From a virus (lineage: Duplodnaviria > Caudoviricetes), in the IMG/VR virus record IMGVR_UViG_2786546133_000001, positions 1 to 64,000 of that record: DNA of 64,000 nucleotides; one strand, written 5' to 3'. The first letter of the stretch is position 1. Each line of letters starts with the position of its first letter. The notes below the pieces were generated by a model, which saw only the letters and a program-made list of their open reading frames with translations, made no database searches and was not told the DNA's origin. A program made the position numbers and the translations under genes. Positions 4,899 to 46,558 of this stretch are shown here, piece after piece.

Positions 4899-5903
4899 GT
4901 GAGCTACTCGGGACACATCAGGCGTGGCCCCATGGCCGCCGACATCATCGGCGAGCACTTCACGCAGATCTACAACGAAGCGGTGCGCGATAAGCGGCTC
5001 AGCCGCCGTGCGCGCGGTTTGCTCGTCGAGATCCTCAGTCACCGTGACGGGTTCGGCATTTCTGTTCAGTCGCTCGTCGCCAACGGGCCCGAAGGACGCG
5101 ACGCGATCCGGAAGACGCTCGCCGAACTGGAAACGCACCACTACCTGAAGCGGCGACAGCTCAAAGACCCCGTCACGAACAGGTTCCTGGAATACGAGTA
5201 CGAAGTGACGGACATGCCCGACGGCTTGTCGCTCGGCGCTTCGGCCCCGTGGTCCGGAGAGGACGACAGCACGTCGGACCCGGAGACGGATTTTCAGGCG
5301 CCGGACGACGACCCGGAGACGCCTTTTCAGTCGCCGGAAAATCAGTCGCCGGAATTCCAGTCGCCGGATTTCCAGACGACGGGAAACACGACACATAAGA
5401 AGATCACTTCCAAGAACACCACCACACACAACACCAGCGACCAGAACGCTCGCGCGCTGCCGCCGGATGAAGTCCTGTTCGACGTAGCCGAGGAGATCCC
5501 GCCCGCTGACGCGGTCGGCGGCGAGCAGGCCGAGACGGTGTCGGCTCAGACGATCGTCGGCGAGTGGCTGGAGCGCTGCGCGAAGCGTCCGCCGCAGCGA
5601 ATCACGGGCCAAGTCGCGAAGATCGTCAAAGAGATGCTCGACGAGCGGATCGACCCCGACGACGTCCGCCGCGGCATGGCTGCGTGGATGACGAGCGGCA
5701 AGACCGCGCCGTCGCTGATCCCGGGCTTCGTGCACCAGGTGATGAACGGCCCCGCGCCGTCGACCGCGCTCGCCGCGAGCGGGCAGGTCGTGCCGTTCGC
5801 CCGCCGCCCGTCGACGACGGACCAGCGCGTACAGGACGCCCTCGACATCGGCCGCCGTCTTCAGGCCGAGGCCGACTCGCGCTCGCAGGAGTGGCAGTCA
5901 TGA
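4899..5903 (+). CDS. Phage replication initiator (lambda O-like, N-terminal winged HTH)
   Basis: FTQIYNEAVRDKRLSRRARGLLVEILSH...EGRDAIRKTLAELE; internal iteron-like repeats. Confidence 0.8.
   Translation: MSYSGHIRRGPMAADIIGEHFTQIYNEAVRDKRLSRRARGLLVEILSHRDGFGISVQSLVANGPEGRDAIRKTLAELETHHYLKRRQLKDPVTNRFLEYEYEVTDMPDGLSLGASAPWSGEDDSTSDPETDFQAPDDDPETPFQSPENQSPEFQSPDFQTTGNTTHKKITSKNTTTHNTSDQNARALPPDEVLFDVAEEIPPADAVGGEQAETVSAQTIVGEWLERCAKRPPQRITGQVAKIVKEMLDERIDPDDVRRGMAAWMTSGKTAPSLIPGFVHQVMNGPAPSTALAASGQVVPFARRPSTTDQRVQDALDIGRRLQAEADSRSQEWQS
5291..5450 (+). repeat. Iteron-like 15-bp repeats plus A/C-rich tract: putative replication origin
   Basis: CAGTCGCCGGA(AAAT/ATTC/TTTC) x3 at 5328-5372, degenerate copies at 5295 and 5373, then A-rich run. 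Confidence 0.65.
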
Positions 5904-8440: not shown

Positions 8441-8784
8441 CCGGCCAGGACTGGGCACGGATCGCCGTCGCGCTCGCGTGCATGTGGGTCGGTGGCTACG
8501 CGACCGGCCGGGGGCGCCCCGTGCGCGCGCTCGTCGCCTGGGCCGACTGGCACGTCTCGTACGCCTCGCGCTGGTCGCCGCGGTTCTGGCTCGCCGTGCC
8601 GGTCGTCGCCGTCGCCGCCTGCTGCCTGCTCGTCGTCCGGCCGCGCCGGTCGCTGCGGAACTGGCGAGCAGCGCGCGAGCGCGACCGGCGACGAGCGCTC
8701 GCGGCACACACACCGCTCCGCCTGCACGATCGGCGTGACCAGTGCGGACACACACAACACAAGGAACATGAGGGGGCAACTTGA
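8437..8784 (+). CDS. Membrane protein
   Basis: GTGA coupling; two hydrophobic segments. Confidence 0.6.
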   Translation: MTGQDWARIAVALACMWVGGYATGRGRPVRALVAWADWHVSYASRWSPRFWLAVPVVAVAACCLLVVRPRRSLRNWRAARERDRRRALAAHTPLRLHDRRDQCGHTQHKEHEGAT

Positions 8785-8821
8785 CAGTGCAACGTGAGAG
8801 TGCAACATTGTGTGTGTCAGC
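8781..8821 (+). promoter_or_regulatory. Conserved promoter/operator, copy 1 of 5
   Basis: TTGACA-GTGCAACGTGAGAGTGC-AACATT...GTCAGC (17-bp spacer). Confidence 0.8.
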
Positions 8822-8849
8822 GCACCGCACGACCCACGGGAGACACCGA

Positions 8850-9476
8850 ATGACCGGCACCGAGATCGTCCTGAACCGGCCCGACGCCGAAGCCGTCCTC
8901 GCCCGCGACGTCCGCAAGGGCGACGTCGTCCTCGGCTGCACCGTCCTGTCCCAGTGGACCGGGAAGATCGAGGTCATCGAGCACTCGGACCCGTACGTCG
9001 CCGACCCGCGCCCTGACGTTCCGGGCTGCCAGTGCCCCGGACACGAGTCGCTCGAAGAGGCCGACCGCGCGAGGGAGTTGGTCATCCTCTACGACGGCGA
9101 GATCTGGGACTTCGCCTGTGACGTCGTCCCCGCCGACGAGTACGTGATCATCCGCAAGCGGCAGGCCGAGGCGGTCGCCGAGGTCGCCGCCGAGCAGGCG
9201 CCGCAAGACGAGCAGGCCGAGCAGGCCGCGCCCGTGCTGCGCCCCGTCAGCAAGGGCAGCAAGACCAGCGTCTTCACTCACAACGGCACGACCGTCTACG
9301 TCTACCCGACCGCCGGAAACCGCGAGCTGTTCTCGGCGCGCCCCGAGGGCCACAAGACGATCGTCTCCCACCGCAAGACCGCCGAAGAGGCCGCCCGCGC
9401 CGCCGTCGCCTACCTCGACGGCGACGACAGCCAGCGGACCGGGTTCGACCTGCTCTCGGAGCTGCTGACCCTGTGA
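8850..9476 (+). CDS. Hypothetical protein
   Basis: GGGAG RBS, ATG at 8850 just after promoter. Confidence 0.75.
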   Translation: MTGTEIVLNRPDAEAVLARDVRKGDVVLGCTVLSQWTGKIEVIEHSDPYVADPRPDVPGCQCPGHESLEEADRARELVILYDGEIWDFACDVVPADEYVIIRKRQAEAVAEVAAEQAPQDEQAEQAAPVLRPVSKGSKTSVFTHNGTTVYVYPTAGNRELFSARPEGHKTIVSHRKTAEEAARAAVAYLDGDDSQRTGFDLLSELLTL

Positions 9477-11302
9477 ACACGACACTGACGACCGACGTCC
9501 CCCAGCGCCTCACCGAAGGCGCTGGGGGCGCCCCCAGCGACCTTGTGTGGGCCAGCCCGCCGTGCCCGCCGGAGTTCTCCGCCGCAGGCGGCAGGCGCGC
9601 CCTGGAAGGCTTCCCCGACGGGTTCCGCTGGGGCAGCCTCTGCACCGGATACGGCGGCCTCGACGCCGCCGCCGTCGAGGTCTTCGGCGGCTCGATCGCC
9701 TGGCACTGCCAGTACGACCCCGACGACCGGTTCCAGTACGCCGCGCAGATCCTCGCGCATCACTGGCCCGACATCCCCAACCACGGCGACATCACGGCTA
9801 TCGACTGGTCGACCGTGGAACGCCCCAACGGCCTGACCATGGGCTTTCCCTGCCAGTCGCTCAGCCTCGCGGGCAAGCGCGAAGGGATCGCCGAGGGCAC
9901 GAAGTCCGGCCTGTGGCTGCACTGCGCCCGCGCCATCGAAGCACTCGAACCCGAATGGGTGGTGATCGAAAATGTCCGAGGGATCCTCTCGCAGAAAGCC
10001 GATCGCGGTCTGGGACCAGACGCTCCGGATATGGACCCAGCCACCGGAGCAAGATTCGTTCTTCGCGCTCTCGGCGCCGTTCTCGGCGACCTGGCCCGCC
10101 TCGGGTTCGATGCGGAATGGTGTGGCGTACGCGCTGAGGAGGTCGGCGCTCCCCACGAGCGATTCCGCGAGTTCATCCTCGCCCGCCGCCGCGCTGCTGC
10201 CGACGCCGACGACGAAGGAACACAACGGACCGGGCAGGCTCGACGGGCCGAGGAACGACACCCTGCGGGCCCGGATCGCGAACCTGCCGACGCCGCGCGC
10301 GAGGGACGGCAGGGGCAAGGGGTTCGACGACTCCCTTCCGGCGGTCGCGGTGAAGCTGCTGAAGACGCCGACGGCGCAGCTCGCGGTGAACGGCGGGTCG
10401 CAGCATCCGGACAAGAGGCGGGCGGGCAATCACGGGGCGACGCTCGCGGACGAGGTGGAGTGGCTGCTGCCGGACGGAGCGGGAGCCCGGCGGCTGCTGC
10501 CGACGCCGACGGCGACGCCGTACGGGTCGAATCAGTCGTCGAGCACGGGCGCGGCGGTCCGTCCGTCGCTGGACGCCCTCGCCCCGAAGCTGCTGCCGAC
10601 GCCGCTCGCGGGGGACGCGAACGGCACCCGGAACGCGACGGCGGGCCGCTCGAAGCACAACCCGAAGGTGAATCTGGGCTGGACGCTGACGGACGTCGTG
10701 CACGCGGGGAGGATCAAGAGCCTGCCTGCCCCACCTGCGGTTGCGCCGAGCACCTCCACGACGGCGGCGGGTTCTGCGCCGGATGCACCCACTGCACAGA
10801 CCCCGACCTCGGACGGCCCGACTGCTACGACGACGGCTGCCCCGTCTGCGCCGCCGGGGCCGAAGCCGCCGCGCTTGCTGCCGACGCCCAGGGCGACGGA
10901 CGGCAGGAAGGGCAGCCCGCAGCAGCACGGGGGACGTGGGGACCTGACGCTCGCGAGCGCGGCGTACCGGATTCTGCCGACGCCGACGGCGGCGGACGGG
11001 GACCGGACGAGCACGACGTACAGCAGGGGCAACCCGACGTTGAATGGGGCGATTACGAGCCCGCCATCCGCCGATGGGAAGCCGTCCTCGGACGACCTGC
11101 CCCCCGGCCAACTGACGATCGAGGTCGCCTGAGCCCCGCGTTCGTCGAATGGATGATGGGCCTCCCCCTCGGCCACGTGACCGGCGTTCCCGGCCTGCCG
11201 CGCAGTGCGCAGCTCAAGGCCCTCGGGAACGGCGTCGTGCCACGGCAGGCCGCCGCCGCGCTGCGGCTGCTGTACGCCCGATTCTTCGACCTCGCCGCCT
11301 GA
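9473..11302 (+). CDS. C5 DNA cytosine methyltransferase (catalytic frame)
   Basis: Motif I SLCTGYGG, IV GFPCQSLS, VI ENV, VIII PHERFR, IX-X RLSPAFVEWMMGLP...LGNGVVP. Confidence 0.9.
   Translation: MNTTLTTDVPQRLTEGAGGAPSDLVWASPPCPPEFSAAGGRRALEGFPDGFRWGSLCTGYGGLDAAAVEVFGGSIAWHCQYDPDDRFQYAAQILAHHWPDIPNHGDITAIDWSTVERPNGLTMGFPCQSLSLAGKREGIAEGTKSGLWLHCARAIEALEPEWVVIENVRGILSQKADRGLGPDAPDMDPATGARFVLRALGAVLGDLARLGFDAEWCGVRAEEVGAPHERFREFILARRRAAADADDEGTQRTGQARRAEERHPAGPDREPADAAREGRQGQGVRRLPSGGRGEAAEDADGAARGERRVAASGQEAGGQSRGDARGRGGVAAAGRSGSPAAAADADGDAVRVESVVEHGRGGPSVAGRPRPEAAADAARGGRERHPERDGGPLEAQPEGESGLDADGRRARGEDQEPACPTCGCAEHLHDGGGFCAGCTHCTDPDLGRPDCYDDGCPVCAAGAEAAALAADAQGDGRQEGQPAAARGTWGPDARERGVPDSADADGGGRGPDEHDVQQGQPDVEWGDYEPAIRRWEAVLGRPAPRPTDDRGRLSPAFVEWMMGLPLGHVTGVPGLPRSAQLKALGNGVVPRQAAAALRLLYARFFDLAA
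9972..11132 (+). CDS. Nested +1-frame ORF with about 7 LPTP...TL repeats (putative target-recognition partner of the MTase)
   Basis: 386 aa open frame; normal codon bias and repeat structure where the main frame reads as low-complexity. Confidence 0.7.
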   Translation: MSEGSSRRKPIAVWDQTLRIWTQPPEQDSFFALSAPFSATWPASGSMRNGVAYALRRSALPTSDSASSSSPAAALLPTPTTKEHNGPGRLDGPRNDTLRARIANLPTPRARDGRGKGFDDSLPAVAVKLLKTPTAQLAVNGGSQHPDKRRAGNHGATLADEVEWLLPDGAGARRLLPTPTATPYGSNQSSSTGAAVRPSLDALAPKLLPTPLAGDANGTRNATAGRSKHNPKVNLGWTLTDVVHAGRIKSLPAPPAVAPSTSTTAAGSAPDAPTAQTPTSDGPTATTTAAPSAPPGPKPPRLLPTPRATDGRKGSPQQHGGRGDLTLASAAYRILPTPTAADGDRTSTTYSRGNPTLNGAITSPPSADGKPSSDDLPPGQLTIEVA

Positions 11303-35392: not shown

Positions 35393-35818
35393 ATGCAGGG
35401 CAAGTCACCAAAGCAGCGGCTCACCGCCGCCGAGCGCCGTAAGCAGGCGTTCGGCCTGTACCTCGCCGGCGTCGACCTCGGCACCATCGCGCAGCAGGTC
35501 GGCTACGCCAACGCGAGCAACGCCCACCGCGCGATCAAACAGGCCATCGAGGAGAGCACCGTCCGCGAGCAGCTCGAACAGACACAGGCGTCCATGGACG
35601 ACGCTCGGCGCCTGGCCATGCTGCGGTACGACCGGCTACAGGCGGCGTTCTGGGGAGCGGCGGTCAAGGACAAGGACCGGCACGCGGCGAACATCGTGCT
35701 TAAGTGCATGGCGGGCCGGGACAAGCTGACCGGCGTCGAGGCGCCCCGCAAGGTCGAGCACTCGGGCGAGGTCACCACGTACGAGATCATCGGCGTCGAC
35801 CCGGACGACCTCGTATGA
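35393..35818 (+). CDS. Terminase small subunit
   Basis: N-terminal HTH (IAQQVGYA); KVEHSG tail; ATGA-coupled to TerL. Confidence 0.8.
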   Translation: MQGKSPKQRLTAAERRKQAFGLYLAGVDLGTIAQQVGYANASNAHRAIKQAIEESTVREQLEQTQASMDDARRLAMLRYDRLQAAFWGAAVKDKDRHAANIVLKCMAGRDKLTGVEAPRKVEHSGEVTTYEIIGVDPDDLV

Positions 35819-37299
35819 CCACGGTCGCCGAGCGGACGGCGCCGGTCGTCACCTTCGAGGCGCGCGGCGCGCACCGCAAGCTGCTGCTGTGCCGGGACAC
35901 CGAGGTCGCCGCCGTAGGCCGGGCCGGCTCGGGGAAGACGCTCGCGGCGTGCTGGAAGCTGCACCTGACGGCACTCAAGGTGCCGAACCTGCGGGCCCTC
36001 ATGCTGCGCGCGACGCACACGAGCCTGACGGCGACGACGCTCGTGTCCTTTCAGCGGTACGTCGCCGCGGCGGCGCTCGCCGACGGCTCGGTCCGCTGGT
36101 TCGGCGGATCGGGCAAGGATCCGGCGGCGTTCCGGTACGCCAACGGCAGTCAGATCCTCGTCGCCGGCGGCGACCGGCCCGAGAAGTTCCTGAGCGCCGA
36201 ACTCGACCGGATCTTCTGTGACGAGGGCGTCGAGATCAGCCTCGACCTGTACGAGACGCTGATCTCCCGTCTGCGCGGCGCGGCGCCGACGTACAAACAG
36301 ATCATGCTCGCGACTAACCCGAGCCACCCGCAGCACTGGATCAAACAGCGCGCCGACGGCGCTCAGCTCACGATGATCACCTCGGGGCACCAGGACAACC
36401 CCGCCTATGTGCGGCCCGACGGCACGTACACCGAGGCCGGCCGCGAGTACATGGAGAAGCTCGACGCGCTGACCGGCGTGCGCCGGGCGCGGCTGAAGGA
36501 CGGGCGTTGGACGAGCGCCGACGGCGCCATCTACGAGGAGTGGGACGACACGGTGCACGTCGTCGACCGCTTCCCCGTGCCCGACGAGTGGCCGCGGATC
36601 TGGGGTGTCGACTTCGGCTTCACGAACCCTTTCACGGTGCAGTGGTACGCGATCGATCCGGACGGCCGGCTGTGGATGTACCGCGAGCTGTATATGACCC
36701 GGCGCACCACGGACGAGCACGCGAGGACGATCCTCGACGCCGTCACCGTCGTCGACGAGGAGACCGGCGAACGCGAGTGGACGGAGCCGAGGCCCGTCGC
36801 GATCGTCTGCGACCACGACGCCGAGGACCGCGCGATCCTGGAGCGCGAGCTGGGGCTCGTCACGACGGCGGCGCACAAGGCGGTGAAGACCGGCATCCAG
36901 GCCGTCAAGGCGCGGCTGCGACCGGCCGGTGACGGACGCCCGCGGTTCTACGTCATGCGGGACACGCTGATCGAGCGGGACGAGCAGCTCGCCGAGGCGA
37001 AGAAACCGATGTGCTTCACGGACGAGGTGCCGGGCTACGTGTGGGCGAAGCCGGCCGCGGCGAAGGTCGGCAGCAAGGCCGAGCCCGAAGAGCCCTTGAA
37101 GGTCGACGACCACGGGATGGACACGGCGCGGTACGTCGTCGCCGAGCTGGATCTCGTCGGCGAGGCGCGTATCCAGTCGCCGACCAGGCGCGGCCCGCAG
37201 CAAGGGCCGGGCGGGCGGGGACGTCCGACGGCGGCCTCACGGTACGGGCGGGTCGTCGGCGGCCCGAACGGCACGGGCGGCGGCGGAGGCCGCCGGTGA
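35815..37299 (+). CDS. Terminase large subunit
   Basis: Walker A GRAGSGKT, Walker B IFCDEG, ATNP, GVDFGFTNP, DHGMDTARY. Confidence 0.93.
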   Translation: MTTVAERTAPVVTFEARGAHRKLLLCRDTEVAAVGRAGSGKTLAACWKLHLTALKVPNLRALMLRATHTSLTATTLVSFQRYVAAAALADGSVRWFGGSGKDPAAFRYANGSQILVAGGDRPEKFLSAELDRIFCDEGVEISLDLYETLISRLRGAAPTYKQIMLATNPSHPQHWIKQRADGAQLTMITSGHQDNPAYVRPDGTYTEAGREYMEKLDALTGVRRARLKDGRWTSADGAIYEEWDDTVHVVDRFPVPDEWPRIWGVDFGFTNPFTVQWYAIDPDGRLWMYRELYMTRRTTDEHARTILDAVTVVDEETGEREWTEPRPVAIVCDHDAEDRAILERELGLVTTAAHKAVKTGIQAVKARLRPAGDGRPRFYVMRDTLIERDEQLAEAKKPMCFTDEVPGYVWAKPAAAKVGSKAEPEEPLKVDDHGMDTARYVVAELDLVGEARIQSPTRRGPQQGPGGRGRPTAASRYGRVVGGPNGTGGGGGRR

Positions 37300-38951: not shown

Positions 38952-40688
38952 GTGGTGCGCCGCGAACTCACCGCCGCCGCCTCCCGCTACACGAAGAAGA
39001 TCGCCAGTAGCCGCGTCCGGAAGCCCGACTCGTCGTGGCAGGCCGAGGGCTGGTCGTTCTACGACGTCGTGCCCGAGGTGCGGTTCGCCGCGACCTGGGT
39101 CGGCGGCGCCATGTCCGGCGCGACGCTGTTCGCCGGGCGCCGCGGCGACGACGGCACGATCGAGCGTGCGCCCGACGACCACCCGGCGACCGAGATCGTC
39201 CGGCAGATCGCCGGCGGCCCCGACGGGCAGTCGGGCATGCTCGGCGACTTCGGCCCTCACCTCGTCGTCGCCGGCGAGGGCTGGATCGTCATTCGGCCCA
39301 CCACCGACAAGGCGACCGGCGCCGTCACCGGCTACGAGTGGCGCGTCCTGTCCACGTCCGAGGTGCAGCAGCAGAACGGCAAGCTGACCGTCGAACTCGA
39401 CGGCGAGCCGGTCGACCTGCCCGCGTACGACGAGGACAACCCCGACGAGTCCGCGCCGATAGCGATCCGCGTGTGGAAGCCGCACCCGCGCCGCCACATC
39501 GAGGCCGACAGCCCCGTCCGCTCCAGCCTCGTCCTGCTCGAAGAGCTCCAGCTGTTGAACGCCGCCGTCGCGGCGATCGCCCGGAGCCGGCTGACCGGCC
39601 GGGGCGTGCTGCTCGTGCCGAAGGGGACGCGCTTCCCGACGCCGCCCGGCGCGCGCAACGACGCCGAGGACGACGTGATCGACGTGTTCATGGAGGTCGC
39701 CGCGACGGCGATCCGTGAACCGGAGTCCGCCGCGGCGACCGTCCCGATCGTGCTGGAGGTCCCGGCCGAAGCGATCGGCTCTATCAAGTGGCTGACGTTC
39801 GAGTCCGACTTCGACGAACTCGCCCTCAGGTTGCGCGACGAGGCGATCCGCCGGTTCGCGACCGGCCTCGAAGTCCCGGCAGAGATCTTGTTGGGCCTGT
39901 CCGATTCGAACCACTGGAACAGCTGGCTGATCGCGGGTGAGGCGATCCGACTCGGCGTCGAACCGCGGCTCGCCGTCATCGCGTACGCCCTCACCACGCA
40001 GTGGCTGCGCCCGCTGCTCGAAGCCCAAGGCGTCGACGACGCCGAGGACTGGCTCGTCTGGTACGACACGAGCGCTCTGAGGGCCTCCAGCAACCGCGCA
40101 CAGACCGCGCTCGAAGCGTTCCAGCTCGGGCTGATCTCCGGTGAGGCCGCCCGCCGCGAAACCGGGTTCACCGAGGACGACCGGCCTGGCGCCACCGACC
40201 CCAACGGCGCGCAGCAGCCCGCCGACACGACGCAGACGGAGGAACCCAGCAACGTGACGACCCTGCCCGTGGCCGAGTCCCCCAGCATTCCCGACACCCT
40301 GCCCGCCTCCGCCGTGCCCGACCTGCCGGCCGAGATCCTCGCCGCCGTCGACGGGCTGATCTGGAACGCCCTCTACGCGGCGGGGACCCGGCTGCGGAAC
40401 CGGCCCGCTTGCCCCCGCTCCGAGCGTGCGCACGCCCGCAGCATCGTCCCCACCGACCTGCACACCACGTACGCCGTCGACGCCGAGCAGATCGACGAGT
40501 GGCGCCTCCTCGAAGGCGCGTGGGTCCGCGTGCCCGAGATCGCCGCCCGCTACGGCCTCGACCCCGACTGCCTCACGTCCGCGCTCGACGAGTACGCCCG
40601 CGCGCTGATCGCCGCCCGTACCCCGTTCACGTTCGACGACGTGCCCCGGCTGCTGCGCATGTCCGCCTGCAAGGCAGACGCGGCATGA
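38952..40688 (+). CDS. Portal protein
   Basis: 578 aa between TerL and MuF; WQAEGW..YD.VPE.RF, P.EILLG....NHW. Confidence 0.8.
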   Translation: MVRRELTAAASRYTKKIASSRVRKPDSSWQAEGWSFYDVVPEVRFAATWVGGAMSGATLFAGRRGDDGTIERAPDDHPATEIVRQIAGGPDGQSGMLGDFGPHLVVAGEGWIVIRPTTDKATGAVTGYEWRVLSTSEVQQQNGKLTVELDGEPVDLPAYDEDNPDESAPIAIRVWKPHPRRHIEADSPVRSSLVLLEELQLLNAAVAAIARSRLTGRGVLLVPKGTRFPTPPGARNDAEDDVIDVFMEVAATAIREPESAAATVPIVLEVPAEAIGSIKWLTFESDFDELALRLRDEAIRRFATGLEVPAEILLGLSDSNHWNSWLIAGEAIRLGVEPRLAVIAYALTTQWLRPLLEAQGVDDAEDWLVWYDTSALRASSNRAQTALEAFQLGLISGEAARRETGFTEDDRPGATDPNGAQQPADTTQTEEPSNVTTLPVAESPSIPDTLPASAVPDLPAEILAAVDGLIWNALYAAGTRLRNRPACPRSERAHARSIVPTDLHTTYAVDAEQIDEWRLLEGAWVRVPEIAARYGLDPDCLTSALDEYARALIAARTPFTFDDVPRLLRMSACKADAA

Positions 40689-44823: not shown

Positions 44824-44887
44824 TAAGATTCCTTTCGACCGCTGGTTATGGGCCGGGTCTCCTTGAGTCACAGGAGACGCGGTCATG
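44824..44887 (+). promoter_or_regulatory. Late leader element copy 2
   Basis: TAAGAT at 44824; CTGGTTATGGGCCGGG at 44842-44857; GTCTCCT/AGGAGAC and GGCCG/CGGTC stems hide RBS up to ATG 44885. Confidence 0.8.
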
Positions 44888-46558
44888 GCCGAGCCTTACG
44901 AGCTCCCCGAAGACATCACCAGCCTGAGCGCCGAGGACCTCGACGCCGAGATCACGCGAGCGACCGAGGTGTTCCAGGCCCGGCGCTCCGACCCGAGCCT
45001 GACCACCGCCGACCTTCCCGCCCTGCGCGAACTCGCGGCGGGCATTGAGGCCATGCGCGGCGAGCAGGCCGAGCGCGTCGAGCAGGCGCAGCAGGCACAG
45101 GCCGAACTCGACCAGCTCGCCGCGCAGGTGCTCGGCGAGGAGACGGCCGCCGAGGACGAGGGCGGCGAGGAGACGGCCGCCGAGGGCAGCGAGAACGCCG
45201 ACGGCGGCGAGGGTGACGGCGGCGAGGGCGGGGAGGGCGGCGAAGTCGCCGCGGCAGCCACGCCGCGCCGTCCCGTGATCGCGCTGACCCAGGTCCGCGC
45301 CCGTCAGCCGCAGCAGGCGGTGCCGGTCGTGAAGGCCCCGTCGGTCGAGATCAAGGCGTCCGTCGACATGCCGGGGCTCGCGCCCGGCGAGGGCATCTCG
45401 ATGGAGACCCTCACCGAGGGCATCATCCGCCGGGCCGGCGCGCTCGCGACGTCGGGCGGCGGCACTGGCATCGTCGCCTCGTACCGGCTGCCGTTCGACG
45501 ACAAGAGCGGGCTCGTCGTCAACGACCCCGGCAACGCCAACGAAGGACTGAACGCCGTCATCAAGGCGGCCGATCAGCGGCGCCTGCCGAAGGGTGACCT
45601 CGTCGCGAGCGGCGGATGGTGCGCGCCGTCCGAGACCGTCTACGACATCACCGACATCGCGTGCCCCGACGGCCTGTGGGACCTGCCCGAGATCCAGCTC
45701 AGCCGCGGCGGCATCCGGTTCTTCCAGACCCCGACGCTCGACGTCAACGCCATGACGTGGGTGTGGACCGAGGCGAACGACATCGCGGCCGGCTCGCCCG
45801 GCGGGCCGACGAAGCCCTGTTTCCGCATCCCCTGCCCGGACCCGATCGAGGTCCGCTGCGACGCGATCGGCGTCTGCCTTGAGGCGGGCATCCTGACGTC
45901 GCGCCACTTCCCGGAGCTGGTCAACTGGTACCAGCGGAACATCATGATCGCGCACGAGATGCGCATCCGCCGCGAGCTGTACGCCCGCGCCCGGACCGCG
46001 TCGACCGCCGTCACCGTGCCGGTCTCGTTCGCGTCGTTCTCCGCCGTCTACGGCGCCGTCGCCCTCCAGGCAACGGACATCATCGAGAAGCACAGCCTGT
46101 GTGAGCGCATCGGCCTCGAAGTCGTCTTCCCGTACTGGGCCCGCGCGATGTTCCTCGCTGACATCGCCCGCCGCTCGGACACCGACGTCTGCGACCTCCC
46201 CGCGAACTGCATCGAGGACGCGTTCGCGACGCTCGGCGTCCGCGTGCAGTGGGCGAAGGGCCTGATCCCCGACGTCCCGACCAACATCGGCGGCACCAAC
46301 CCGGCGACCACCTGGCCCGCCGACGTCGAGTTCCTGATCTACCCGACGGGCAACTTCCAGCTCGGGCGCGGCGCCGAGATCAACCTCGGCGTGATCCACG
46401 ACTCGACCCGCCTCGCGACGAACGATTTCACGGCGCTCTTCGCCGAGGAATGCGTCGCGCTCGTCGACCGCGGTATCGAGTCGCGCGTCGTCACCGTGCC
46501 GGTCTGCGCCGACGGCTCGGTGGGCCCGCGGGCCACGCCCGCATGCCCGATCGCCTGA
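44885..46558 (+). CDS. Major capsid protein with N-terminal scaffold-like domain
   Basis: Acidic coiled-coil N-terminus; LVASGGWCAPSETVYD, LPEIQLSRGGIRF, LGVIHDS. Confidence 0.85.
   Translation: MAEPYELPEDITSLSAEDLDAEITRATEVFQARRSDPSLTTADLPALRELAAGIEAMRGEQAERVEQAQQAQAELDQLAAQVLGEETAAEDEGGEETAAEGSENADGGEGDGGEGGEGGEVAAAATPRRPVIALTQVRARQPQQAVPVVKAPSVEIKASVDMPGLAPGEGISMETLTEGIIRRAGALATSGGGTGIVASYRLPFDDKSGLVVNDPGNANEGLNAVIKAADQRRLPKGDLVASGGWCAPSETVYDITDIACPDGLWDLPEIQLSRGGIRFFQTPTLDVNAMTWVWTEANDIAAGSPGGPTKPCFRIPCPDPIEVRCDAIGVCLEAGILTSRHFPELVNWYQRNIMIAHEMRIRRELYARARTASTAVTVPVSFASFSAVYGAVALQATDIIEKHSLCERIGLEVVFPYWARAMFLADIARRSDTDVCDLPANCIEDAFATLGVRVQWAKGLIPDVPTNIGGTNPATTWPADVEFLIYPTGNFQLGRGAEINLGVIHDSTRLATNDFTALFAEECVALVDRGIESRVVTVPVCADGSVGPRATPACPIA

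Follow-up and report, generated by a model that had tools for sequence, protein, structure and literature searches.

A gene nested in the second frame of a prophage C5 methyltransferase: a probable two-polypeptide enzyme with a module array

Introduction

How is a C5 methyltransferase put together when the DNA between its motifs VIII and IX appears to code in another frame? The question is raised by a gene at 9473–11302 of a 64,000-nucleotide stretch of viral DNA (positions 1 to 64,000 of the IMG/VR record IMGVR_UViG_2786546133_000001, Caudoviricetes), which we call the window. A second open reading frame (ORF), at 9972–11132, lies wholly within this gene, in its +1 frame; we refer to the product of the main frame (frame 0) as alpha and to that of the nested frame as beta. 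The reading that we favour, and consider reasonably probable, is that the locus encodes a two-polypeptide prophage C5 methyltransferase, in which an array of modules in beta fills the place of the variable region of alpha.

An earlier note on this DNA had proposed a "two-polypeptide or frameshift-assembled" enzyme. It described a main frame with motifs I–VIII, about 290 residues of shadow-like sequence and then motifs IX–X, and a nested frame of 386 residues holding about seven modules of the form L(P/K)TP...(T/S)L. Both descriptions are correct: the shadow-like stretch spans about 285 codons, and the nested frame has seven anchors and the endings that the note gave. Two features had been missed. 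The start of the nested ORF falls within motif VI, with motifs VI–VIII coded in both frames (9972–10190), and a cysteine-rich island (10727–10849) is present in the main frame, within the supposed shadow.

The catalytic chain

Alpha (9473–11302, + strand like all the features of this locus, GTG start, 609 residues) is identified as the catalytic chain of a C5 methyltransferase by its Pfam match, its motifs and its predicted fold. Motifs I, IV, VI, VIII, IX and X occur in this order in a single frame: motif I (SLCTGYGGLD, 9635–9664), motif IV (GFPCQSLS, 9842–9865), whose catalytic Cys is invariant in the family alignments, motif VI (ENVRG, 9968–9982) and motif VIII (GAPHERFREFILA, 10145–10183), whose H, R and R are invariant in the family, the H standing where Q is usual. 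The C-terminal part (11045–11299) comprises the segment WGDYEPAIRRWE (11045–11080), motif IX (11126–11182) and motif X (11210–11251).

The Pfam family PF00145 matches alpha with 93.8 bits (cut-off 22), the match being restricted to residues 52–241. In the AlphaFold2 (AF2) model, residues 41–245 and 520–609 mostly have a predicted local distance difference test score (pLDDT) of at least 90, a level reached by 215 residues of the core, which has the fold of a catalytic domain. The best Foldseek match of the core is M.HhaI (E 1.8e-13, 190 columns), and M.HaeIII is also matched over about 190 columns. A folded variable region, that is, a target-recognition domain (TRD), is absent between motifs VIII and IX in this model, where most of residues 249–509 have a pLDDT below 50.

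The nested gene and its start

Beta (9972–11132, ATG start, 386 residues) begins where the main frame codes for motif VI. Its ATG (9972–9974) is created by the rare Asn codon AAT in the ENV of this motif; AAT encodes that Asn in 72 of 116 loci, compared to 36 of 390 Asn codons upstream. The last stop of the +1 frame, a TGA at 9963–9965, lies two codons before the ATG and is part of a Shine–Dalgarno-like sequence, GGTGATC (9961–9967), which ends 4 nt before the start codon. With a 16S 3' tail, the duplex energy of this site is −18.1 kcal/mol, for a control median of −4.2. The compact relatives described below use a different internal start for beta, which is preceded by AAGGAG.

The first part of beta is a conserved N-domain of about 70 residues (PIAVW..IW..FSATWPASGSMRNG..SSSSP), encoded by the dual-coded overlap (9972–10190). 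AF2 predicts for it a modest, small beta-structure (pLDDT 71–87 for residues 11–60). A single PHROG profile, phrog_1008 ("DNA methyltransferase"), is covered by the two frames of the window, since its positions 71–173 match residues 9–116 of beta (E 5.5e-24) and its positions 193–322 match residues 489–605 of alpha (E 6e-38).

The nested protein is widespread. A search with it, in which 8,000 proteins were scored, retrieved 1,747 at E ≤ 1e-3; of the 120 matches listed, almost all are annotated as "hypothetical", and a Pfam domain is found only in one frame-fused form. In the ESM Atlas, only clusters named "hypothetical protein" are matched. When 1.84 billion proteins were searched with a profile of the N-domain, 9,890 cluster representatives were matched; of the 150 listed, 145 have a domain that begins no later than residue 25. 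In a phage collection, the nested protein of the window matches 29 records, while that of Philonius matches 381 (292 from phages of Mycobacterium, 44 of Arthrobacter and 32 of Gordonia). The nested ORF is also present in Darolandstone and Raleigh, two Streptomyces phages, with the same start and the same ending, PGQLTIE(A/V)A; in both records, a lone "DNA methylase" coding sequence (gene 38) is annotated.

The frame under selection

Long open shadow frames are common at a G+C content of 72%, which is that of the window. It may therefore be asked whether the nested ORF is an untranslated shadow of a high-GC gene, whose conservation is a by-product of the main frame and of codon bias. Part of the conservation is indeed of this kind: the segment SAPFSATWP arises when the codons of LGAVLGDLA are read in the +1 frame, and the tail of beta up to its stop (11043–11132) is the out-of-frame reading of the conserved WGDY..RWE..GRPAP segment of alpha, of which its own conservation is probably a by-product. 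The stop of beta lies 87 nt past the W codon in 42 type-B loci, which is the commonest distance.

Most of the nested frame behaves differently. The G+C content at third codon positions (GC3) tracks the main frame up to about 9960, the nested frame over 9960–10700 and 10860–11100, and again the main frame at 10740–10860 and from 11100 onwards. The periodicity of substitutions was determined from six disjoint pairs of relatives with a common module architecture. In the N-terminal part that codes only for alpha, 149 of the 234 differences fall at position 3 of the main frame (rate 0.084), and the same holds for 90 of the 143 differences in the C-terminal part of alpha (rate 0.097). In the part where only beta is conserved, on the contrary, 223 of the 376 differences are at position 3 of the nested frame (rate 0.101). 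In the overlap, the 45 differences favour no single position and their rate (0.040) is about half that of the alpha-only and beta-only flanks. The frame-wise GC3 and dN/dS-type comparisons that the earlier note had called for show, therefore, a nested frame that is conserved: the main frame is under selection at the two ends of the gene and the nested frame between them, and the two are selected together over 9972–10190.

Other observations point in the same direction. Two Trp columns of the nested frame are 88–89% conserved, whereas the main-frame codons that they overlap are at most 69% conserved. In phage contigs of 43–52% G+C, the +1 frame is open over the 67–79 codons of the same overlap, with P values of 0.001–0.036 from synonymous resampling. 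The module types described below recur in hundreds of proteins. A shadow frame is already contradicted by GC3, the Trp conservation, the substitution periodicity (for about 850 nt, GC3 and periodicity are those of the nested frame, and the main frame looks unconstrained) and the low-GC overlap; we regard it as extremely improbable, and we are confident that the nested ORF is a real, selected gene.

Connection of the pieces in relatives

The relation between the two frames was compared over 166 loci: 160 that were fetched with the nested protein, five annotated phage loci and the window. All three required tblastn matches were obtained for 165 of them (the remaining one, L047, gave no match for the N-domain). 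In all 165, motifs VI–VIII have the N-domain in their +1 frame. The C-terminal part (WGxY, motifs IX and X) is in frame 0, as in the window, in 140 loci (124 of them distinct). In 19 other loci it is in the +1 frame, so that alpha ends soon after motif VIII and beta consists of the N-domain, the modules and motifs IX and X. Since these 19 loci fuse the N-domain and the modules upstream of motifs IX–X, the array sits at the position of the variable region of C5 methyltransferases. In about 20 loci, including that of Philonius, the reading switches back to frame 0 in the middle of the array, which places modules on both chains, and there are compact relatives whose beta has about 150–165 residues and a single module. 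The covalent connection of the pieces therefore varies among lineages.

The canonical order could also be restored in a single polypeptide by recoding, with a +1 shift past motif VIII and a return before WGDY, either by frameshifting or by hopping. The pieces joined in this manner would give the usual chain of motifs I–VIII, TRD and IX–X, the paper on phage Corndog leaves frameshift or hop open where it discusses a comparable gene pair (PMC4351075), and a TGGGG run is present at every WG junction. However, an X_XXY_YYZ (−1) heptamer is found near only 6 of 108 type-B junctions, which does not make a conserved slippery site. The point of return depends on the lineage (before WGxY, in the middle of the array, or nowhere), and the tails of alpha past motif VIII vary in length and sequence, as seen in the type-A (two-gene) relatives. 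Moreover, recoding leaves unexplained why the N-domain of beta lies upstream of any shift site and has an ATG and a Shine–Dalgarno-like site, and why frame 0 keeps a cysteine-rich island and is open in all the loci discussed below. We consider recoding improbable. The production of two polypeptides fits far better, because beta has its own ATG with a Shine–Dalgarno-like site and a conserved N-domain that overlaps motifs VI–VIII, because frame 0 is open, and because the heptamer is rare. Of the two assemblies that the earlier note had left side by side, it is thus the two-polypeptide one that is favoured.

The existence of the two-gene form suggests a further possibility, namely that the gene of the window is a decaying copy of it, in which a frameshift severed motifs IX–X from beta and left an inactive enzyme; the two forms differ by a change of frame before WGxY. 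Against this, the frame-0 form is the majority form and its frame is kept open, the C-terminal part of alpha shows the periodicity of purifying selection in the main frame (see the 90 differences above), and the record is a complete provirus. Decay appears highly unlikely to us.

No convincing cis form, in which the N-domain would follow motif VIII in the same frame, was found among the 150 top profile matches. Five internal N-domain matches among these 150 were considered and rejected: two are preceded by LAGLIDADG-like N-terminal parts, two are frame fusions that lack motifs and one is an out-of-frame read. P0080, another candidate, is also a frame fusion.

Two side observations concern these proteins. 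In P0080, P0227 and P0257, the N-terminal part of alpha is joined straight to the N-domain of beta (at ENV, past motif IV or VII), with loss of motifs; these proteins are probably frame-fused remnants or assembly errors. In P0127, P0174 and P0220, a LAGLIDADG-like segment (AGLVDGEGW, AGLFEGEGY) either precedes the N-domain or separates it from the modules, an indication that homing-endonuclease or intein-type insertions may occur in the beta family.

The linker of alpha

What does the main frame encode where the nested frame is selected? Between motif VIII and WGDYEPAIRRWE, the main-frame reading of the beta-coding DNA (10184–11044) is a linker of about 285 codons, in which R, A, G, D and E abound and which is predicted to be disordered except near the cysteine-rich island. 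It contains no stop: none is found in the 272 codons tested in the window, for a permutation mean of 3.96 (P 0.011). Across the beta-only region, frame 0 is without a stop in 123 of 123 distinct loci, when 34.2 are expected from permuted beta codons. The linker is kept stop-free by selection, and both chains are therefore probably made.

The cysteine-rich island (CPTCGC..H.H..CAGC..C...C....CPVC, 10727–10849) is the one part of the linker where GC3 is higher in the main frame (0.90) than in the nested frame (0.72). The same DNA encodes a P/A/T/S-rich linker in the frame of beta, and the Cys codons of the window carry T at the third position of the nested frame. The island recurs (CPTCGC..HD.GGFCAGC..C) in frame 0 of 12 of 124 loci, at varying positions. 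Its pLDDT is 56–64, and it is probably zinc-binding.

Other cysteine-rich elements were noticed in relatives. In two low-GC loci (L064 and L079), a module of beta itself holds a Cys motif (..GLCRDHGGDLLHE.ICGC..), so that in this family cysteine-rich elements are found on either chain. In gene 38 of Darolandstone and Raleigh (L001 2956–4650 and L002 2959–4518), alpha has a Cys/His-rich insertion of about 70 residues (LLCGNCRWGDHDHATCE...) shortly past motif IV; it is absent from the alpha of the window, whose cysteine-rich island is in the linker.

The module array of beta

Past the N-domain, the nested frame contains seven LPTP or LKTP anchors (at 10197, 10284, 10359, 10497, 10593, 10878 and 10974), each of which precedes a loop, a (T/S)L pair and a short helix. 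The modules that they delimit are module 1 (LLPTPTTKEHNGPGRLDGPRNDTLRARIAN, 10194–10283), module 2 (LPTPRARDGRGKGFDDSLPAVAVK, 10284–10355), module 3 (LLKTPTAQLAVNGGSQHPDKRRAGNHGATLADEVEW..., 10356–10493), which belongs to the most widespread kinds (types 1, 6 and 17), module 4 (LLPTPTATPYGSNQSSSTGAAVRPSLDALAPK, 10494–10589), module 5 (LLPTPLAGDANGTRNATAGRSKHNPKVNLGWTLTDVVHAGR..., 10590–10715), module 6 (LLPTPRATDGRKGSPQQHGGRGDLTLASAAYR, 10875–10970) and module 7 (ILPTPTAADGDRTSTTYSRGNPTL, 10971–11042), which is of the most common last type (type 0, last in 70 proteins). Their endings are, in order, NDTL, DSL, ATL, PSL, WTL, LTL and PTL. At the DNA level, the 11-nt anchor CTGCCGACGCC is present in six copies in the window, all of them within 10197–10984 and in the nested phase; in shuffled versions of the window the mean is 0.43, and none of 100 shuffles reaches six.

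To compare arrays, 1,119 modules were collected from 264 beta proteins, and greedy clustering at 50% identity sorted 1,084 of them into 172 types, 43 of which have at least five members. Single-linkage clustering was abandoned, as the shared anchor pulled 1,031 of the 1,119 modules into one cluster. The array of the window reads as types 10, 17, 3, 15, 8 and 0, type 10 covering modules 1 and 2, and the type string of a locus that is 87% identical (L008) is the same.

The 257 proteins compared display 216 distinct architectures. None of them contains the same type twice, when random draws would give 50.7 ± 5.7 such proteins. Among 201 co-occurring pairs of types, 41 are found in both orders, and certain types are the sole module of one protein and part of an array in others. 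The types of module are freely recombined into a combinatorial array, and an expandable one, as the earlier note had proposed. The lack of duplicates fits what may be a set of distinct specificity units.

Genomic setting

The source record is a complete provirus of 89,635 bases. The integrase gene is at its left end (1–1647, − strand), followed by genes for a replication initiator (4899–5903), the large terminase (35704–37299), the portal (38952–40688) and the major head protein (44885–46558). The integrase, terminase, portal and head genes establish that the methylase is phage-encoded, and its position is that of the early/replication module of a temperate phage. The GTG start of alpha shares the sequence GTGA (9473–9476) with the TGA stop of the upstream gene (8781–9476), which suggests that its translation may be coupled to that of this gene, whose product gave no match with the PHROG profiles.

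Discussion

The mechanism that we propose is the following. Alpha would be translated straight through, giving a core with motifs I–VIII, a mostly disordered linker of about 285 residues and motifs IX–X, while beta would be produced by internal initiation at the ATG within the codons of motif VI. Beta would then bind alpha and occupy the place of the missing variable region. We think it fairly probable that beta binds alpha, and equally so that it would serve as its recognition part. Each type of module would probably be a separate recognition unit, in which case the phage may methylate several sites, and modules would be gained, lost and reordered through recombination at the conserved anchor.

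The assignment of the modules is more tentative than that of beta as a whole. That they are TRDs which confer multispecificity is a possibility that we hold with less than even confidence; it follows from the position and the behaviour of the array, since beta matches no entry of Pfam, NCBIfam or the PDB. A fuller version of the idea, which we put forward only as a conjecture, is that each L(P/K)TP...(T/S)L module may be an autonomous target-recognition unit, and beta an array of cassettes that acts in trans on a chain devoid of TRD and is rebuilt at the 11-nt anchor; more than 100 types would then allow the methylation of multiple sites, and the folded parts of each chain would be interleaved in the disordered linkers of the other. 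An anti-restriction role of the enzyme, as suggested in the earlier note, would be in keeping with this proposal.

It may be instead that beta is real without being a recognition part. It could be a regulator, a scaffold or a separate counter-defence factor, or only one of its modules could matter, and alpha would act without beta or with low specificity. The catalytic core of alpha is complete, no known TRD is matched by beta in sequence or fold, and the prediction for the modules is of loop-helix units with weak order (pLDDT 50–64). On the other hand, the stretch of alpha from motif VIII to motif IX lacks a folded region; in 19 of 165 loci, the N-domain and the modules share one chain with motifs IX–X and precede them, at the position of the variable region; the compact form of beta has the size of a small domain; and each of the loci, which were found with the nested protein, encodes beta together with a methylase of this family. 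We consider a beta that is not involved in recognition unlikely.

Several observations weigh against the two-polypeptide enzyme with a recognition array, or weaken the arguments for it. Because the loci were found with a nested-protein query, the statements that the N-domain is in the +1 frame in all of them and that this frame is open in 141 of 144 are biased by ascertainment. In six of 165 loci (L128, L135, L150, L153, L156 and L165), the C-terminal part is in the +2 frame; these may represent damaged copies, errors of sequencing or a third way of connecting the pieces. The Shine–Dalgarno-like GGTGATC need not be selected, since it follows from the preferred codons of the conserved VVIEN. 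The missing duplicates could equally reflect the recombinational loss of direct repeats. Modelled alone, residues 1–175 of beta have a mean pLDDT of 60.9, which is a low confidence, and a Foldseek search of the PDB with this model returned only chance-level matches (best E 4.4). Beta has no match in Pfam or NCBIfam, and its profile has none at E ≤ 10 among the PDB sequences. Last, the passages on genes 6 and 7 of Corndog report that their products were unseen by mass spectrometry (PMC4351075).

We nevertheless maintain the two-polypeptide reading, which has consequences on several levels. Regarding annotation, the nested product is listed elsewhere as "hypothetical protein", and the family of about 10,000 clusters has no Pfam or NCBIfam model. 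As an instance of overlapping genes, the locus is of unusual length and lends itself to testing: a double constraint applies to about 70 codons, and over about 285 more, one frame is coding while the other is kept open. If the modules are recognition units, they would constitute a natural repertoire of over 100 short cassettes for DNA recognition, at the disposal of one catalytic core, and the array, if this is true, would explain how actinobacteriophages adapt to changing restriction systems.

Comparison with known systems

The multispecific C5 methyltransferases of Bacillus phages (SPR, phi3T, rho11s and H2) reportedly carry, in their variable region, tandem short recognition units that differ from one another. 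Their TRDs are said to be part of the catalytic chain itself, and their specificities to have been shown by experiment. Compared on this description, the enzyme of the window is likewise phage-borne, and its seven differing modules in tandem would be a counterpart if they are recognition units, the difference being that they are on a separate, nested chain.

Split enzymes are known among C5 methyltransferases. M.AquI and M.EcoHK31I are described as two-polypeptide exceptions in the part of the literature considered here, which also reports that split enzymes assemble from fragments and that fragments complement each other (PMC3404938). M.AquI (CYCGRG) is split in the variable region: according to the same text, its larger subunit has motifs I–VIII, and its smaller subunit the rest of the variable region and motifs IX–X (PMC3404938). 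This order is that of the type-A relatives (DrYang 77/78, L030, L075 and others), and a beta with the distal variable region and motifs IX–X is found in 19 of 165 loci. The window differs from it, in that motifs IX–X are back in the frame of alpha, and in the relatives about 70 codons, over motifs VI–VIII, are dual-coded.

M.EcoHK31I (E. coli, YGGCCR) is a parallel in gene layout. The coding sequence of its beta lies entirely within that of its alpha, in a different frame, and this beta provides motif IX (PMC2836561). The enzyme of the window would resemble it as a two-polypeptide C5 methyltransferase with internal initiation of beta (PMC2836561, PMC3404938), and its beta ORF is likewise nested in another frame, 9972–11132 within 9473–11302. 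The parallel drawn in the earlier note is valid for the layout of the genes and fails for motif IX. As far as these descriptions go, the alpha of M.EcoHK31I holds motifs I–VIII, motif X and the TRD, and its beta only motif IX, whereas in the window motif IX (11126–11182) is in the frame of alpha, together with motif X, and alpha has no folded variable region. Compared by layout, the beta of the window also differs in having an N-domain and seven variable modules over 386 residues.

A related locus, that of genes 6 and 7, has been described in phage Corndog, which is matched by the nested-ORF query from Philonius (E 4e-6). Its layout looks like that of the window, an N-terminal methylase gene being associated with a second gene for which the best start falls within the first. 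Gene 6 is reported to have its best start and its coding potential within gene 7; splicing was not observed, the authors leave undecided whether the locus yields two products or involves a frameshift, a hop or an intron, and they note similar arrangements in other phages (PMC4351075). The present analysis bears on this choice between two products, a frameshift and a hop. Corndog belongs to the two-gene kind. In so far as it treats these genes, that account includes neither the frame-0 linker nor a fully nested form, nor does it contain a typing of modules or tests between the models (PMC4351075). In a full-text literature search, which covered main texts, the Corndog note was the only one to bear on the architecture, and none concerned the fully nested form or the module array. 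The module-array analysis and the cysteine-rich island in the main frame are contributions of the present analysis.

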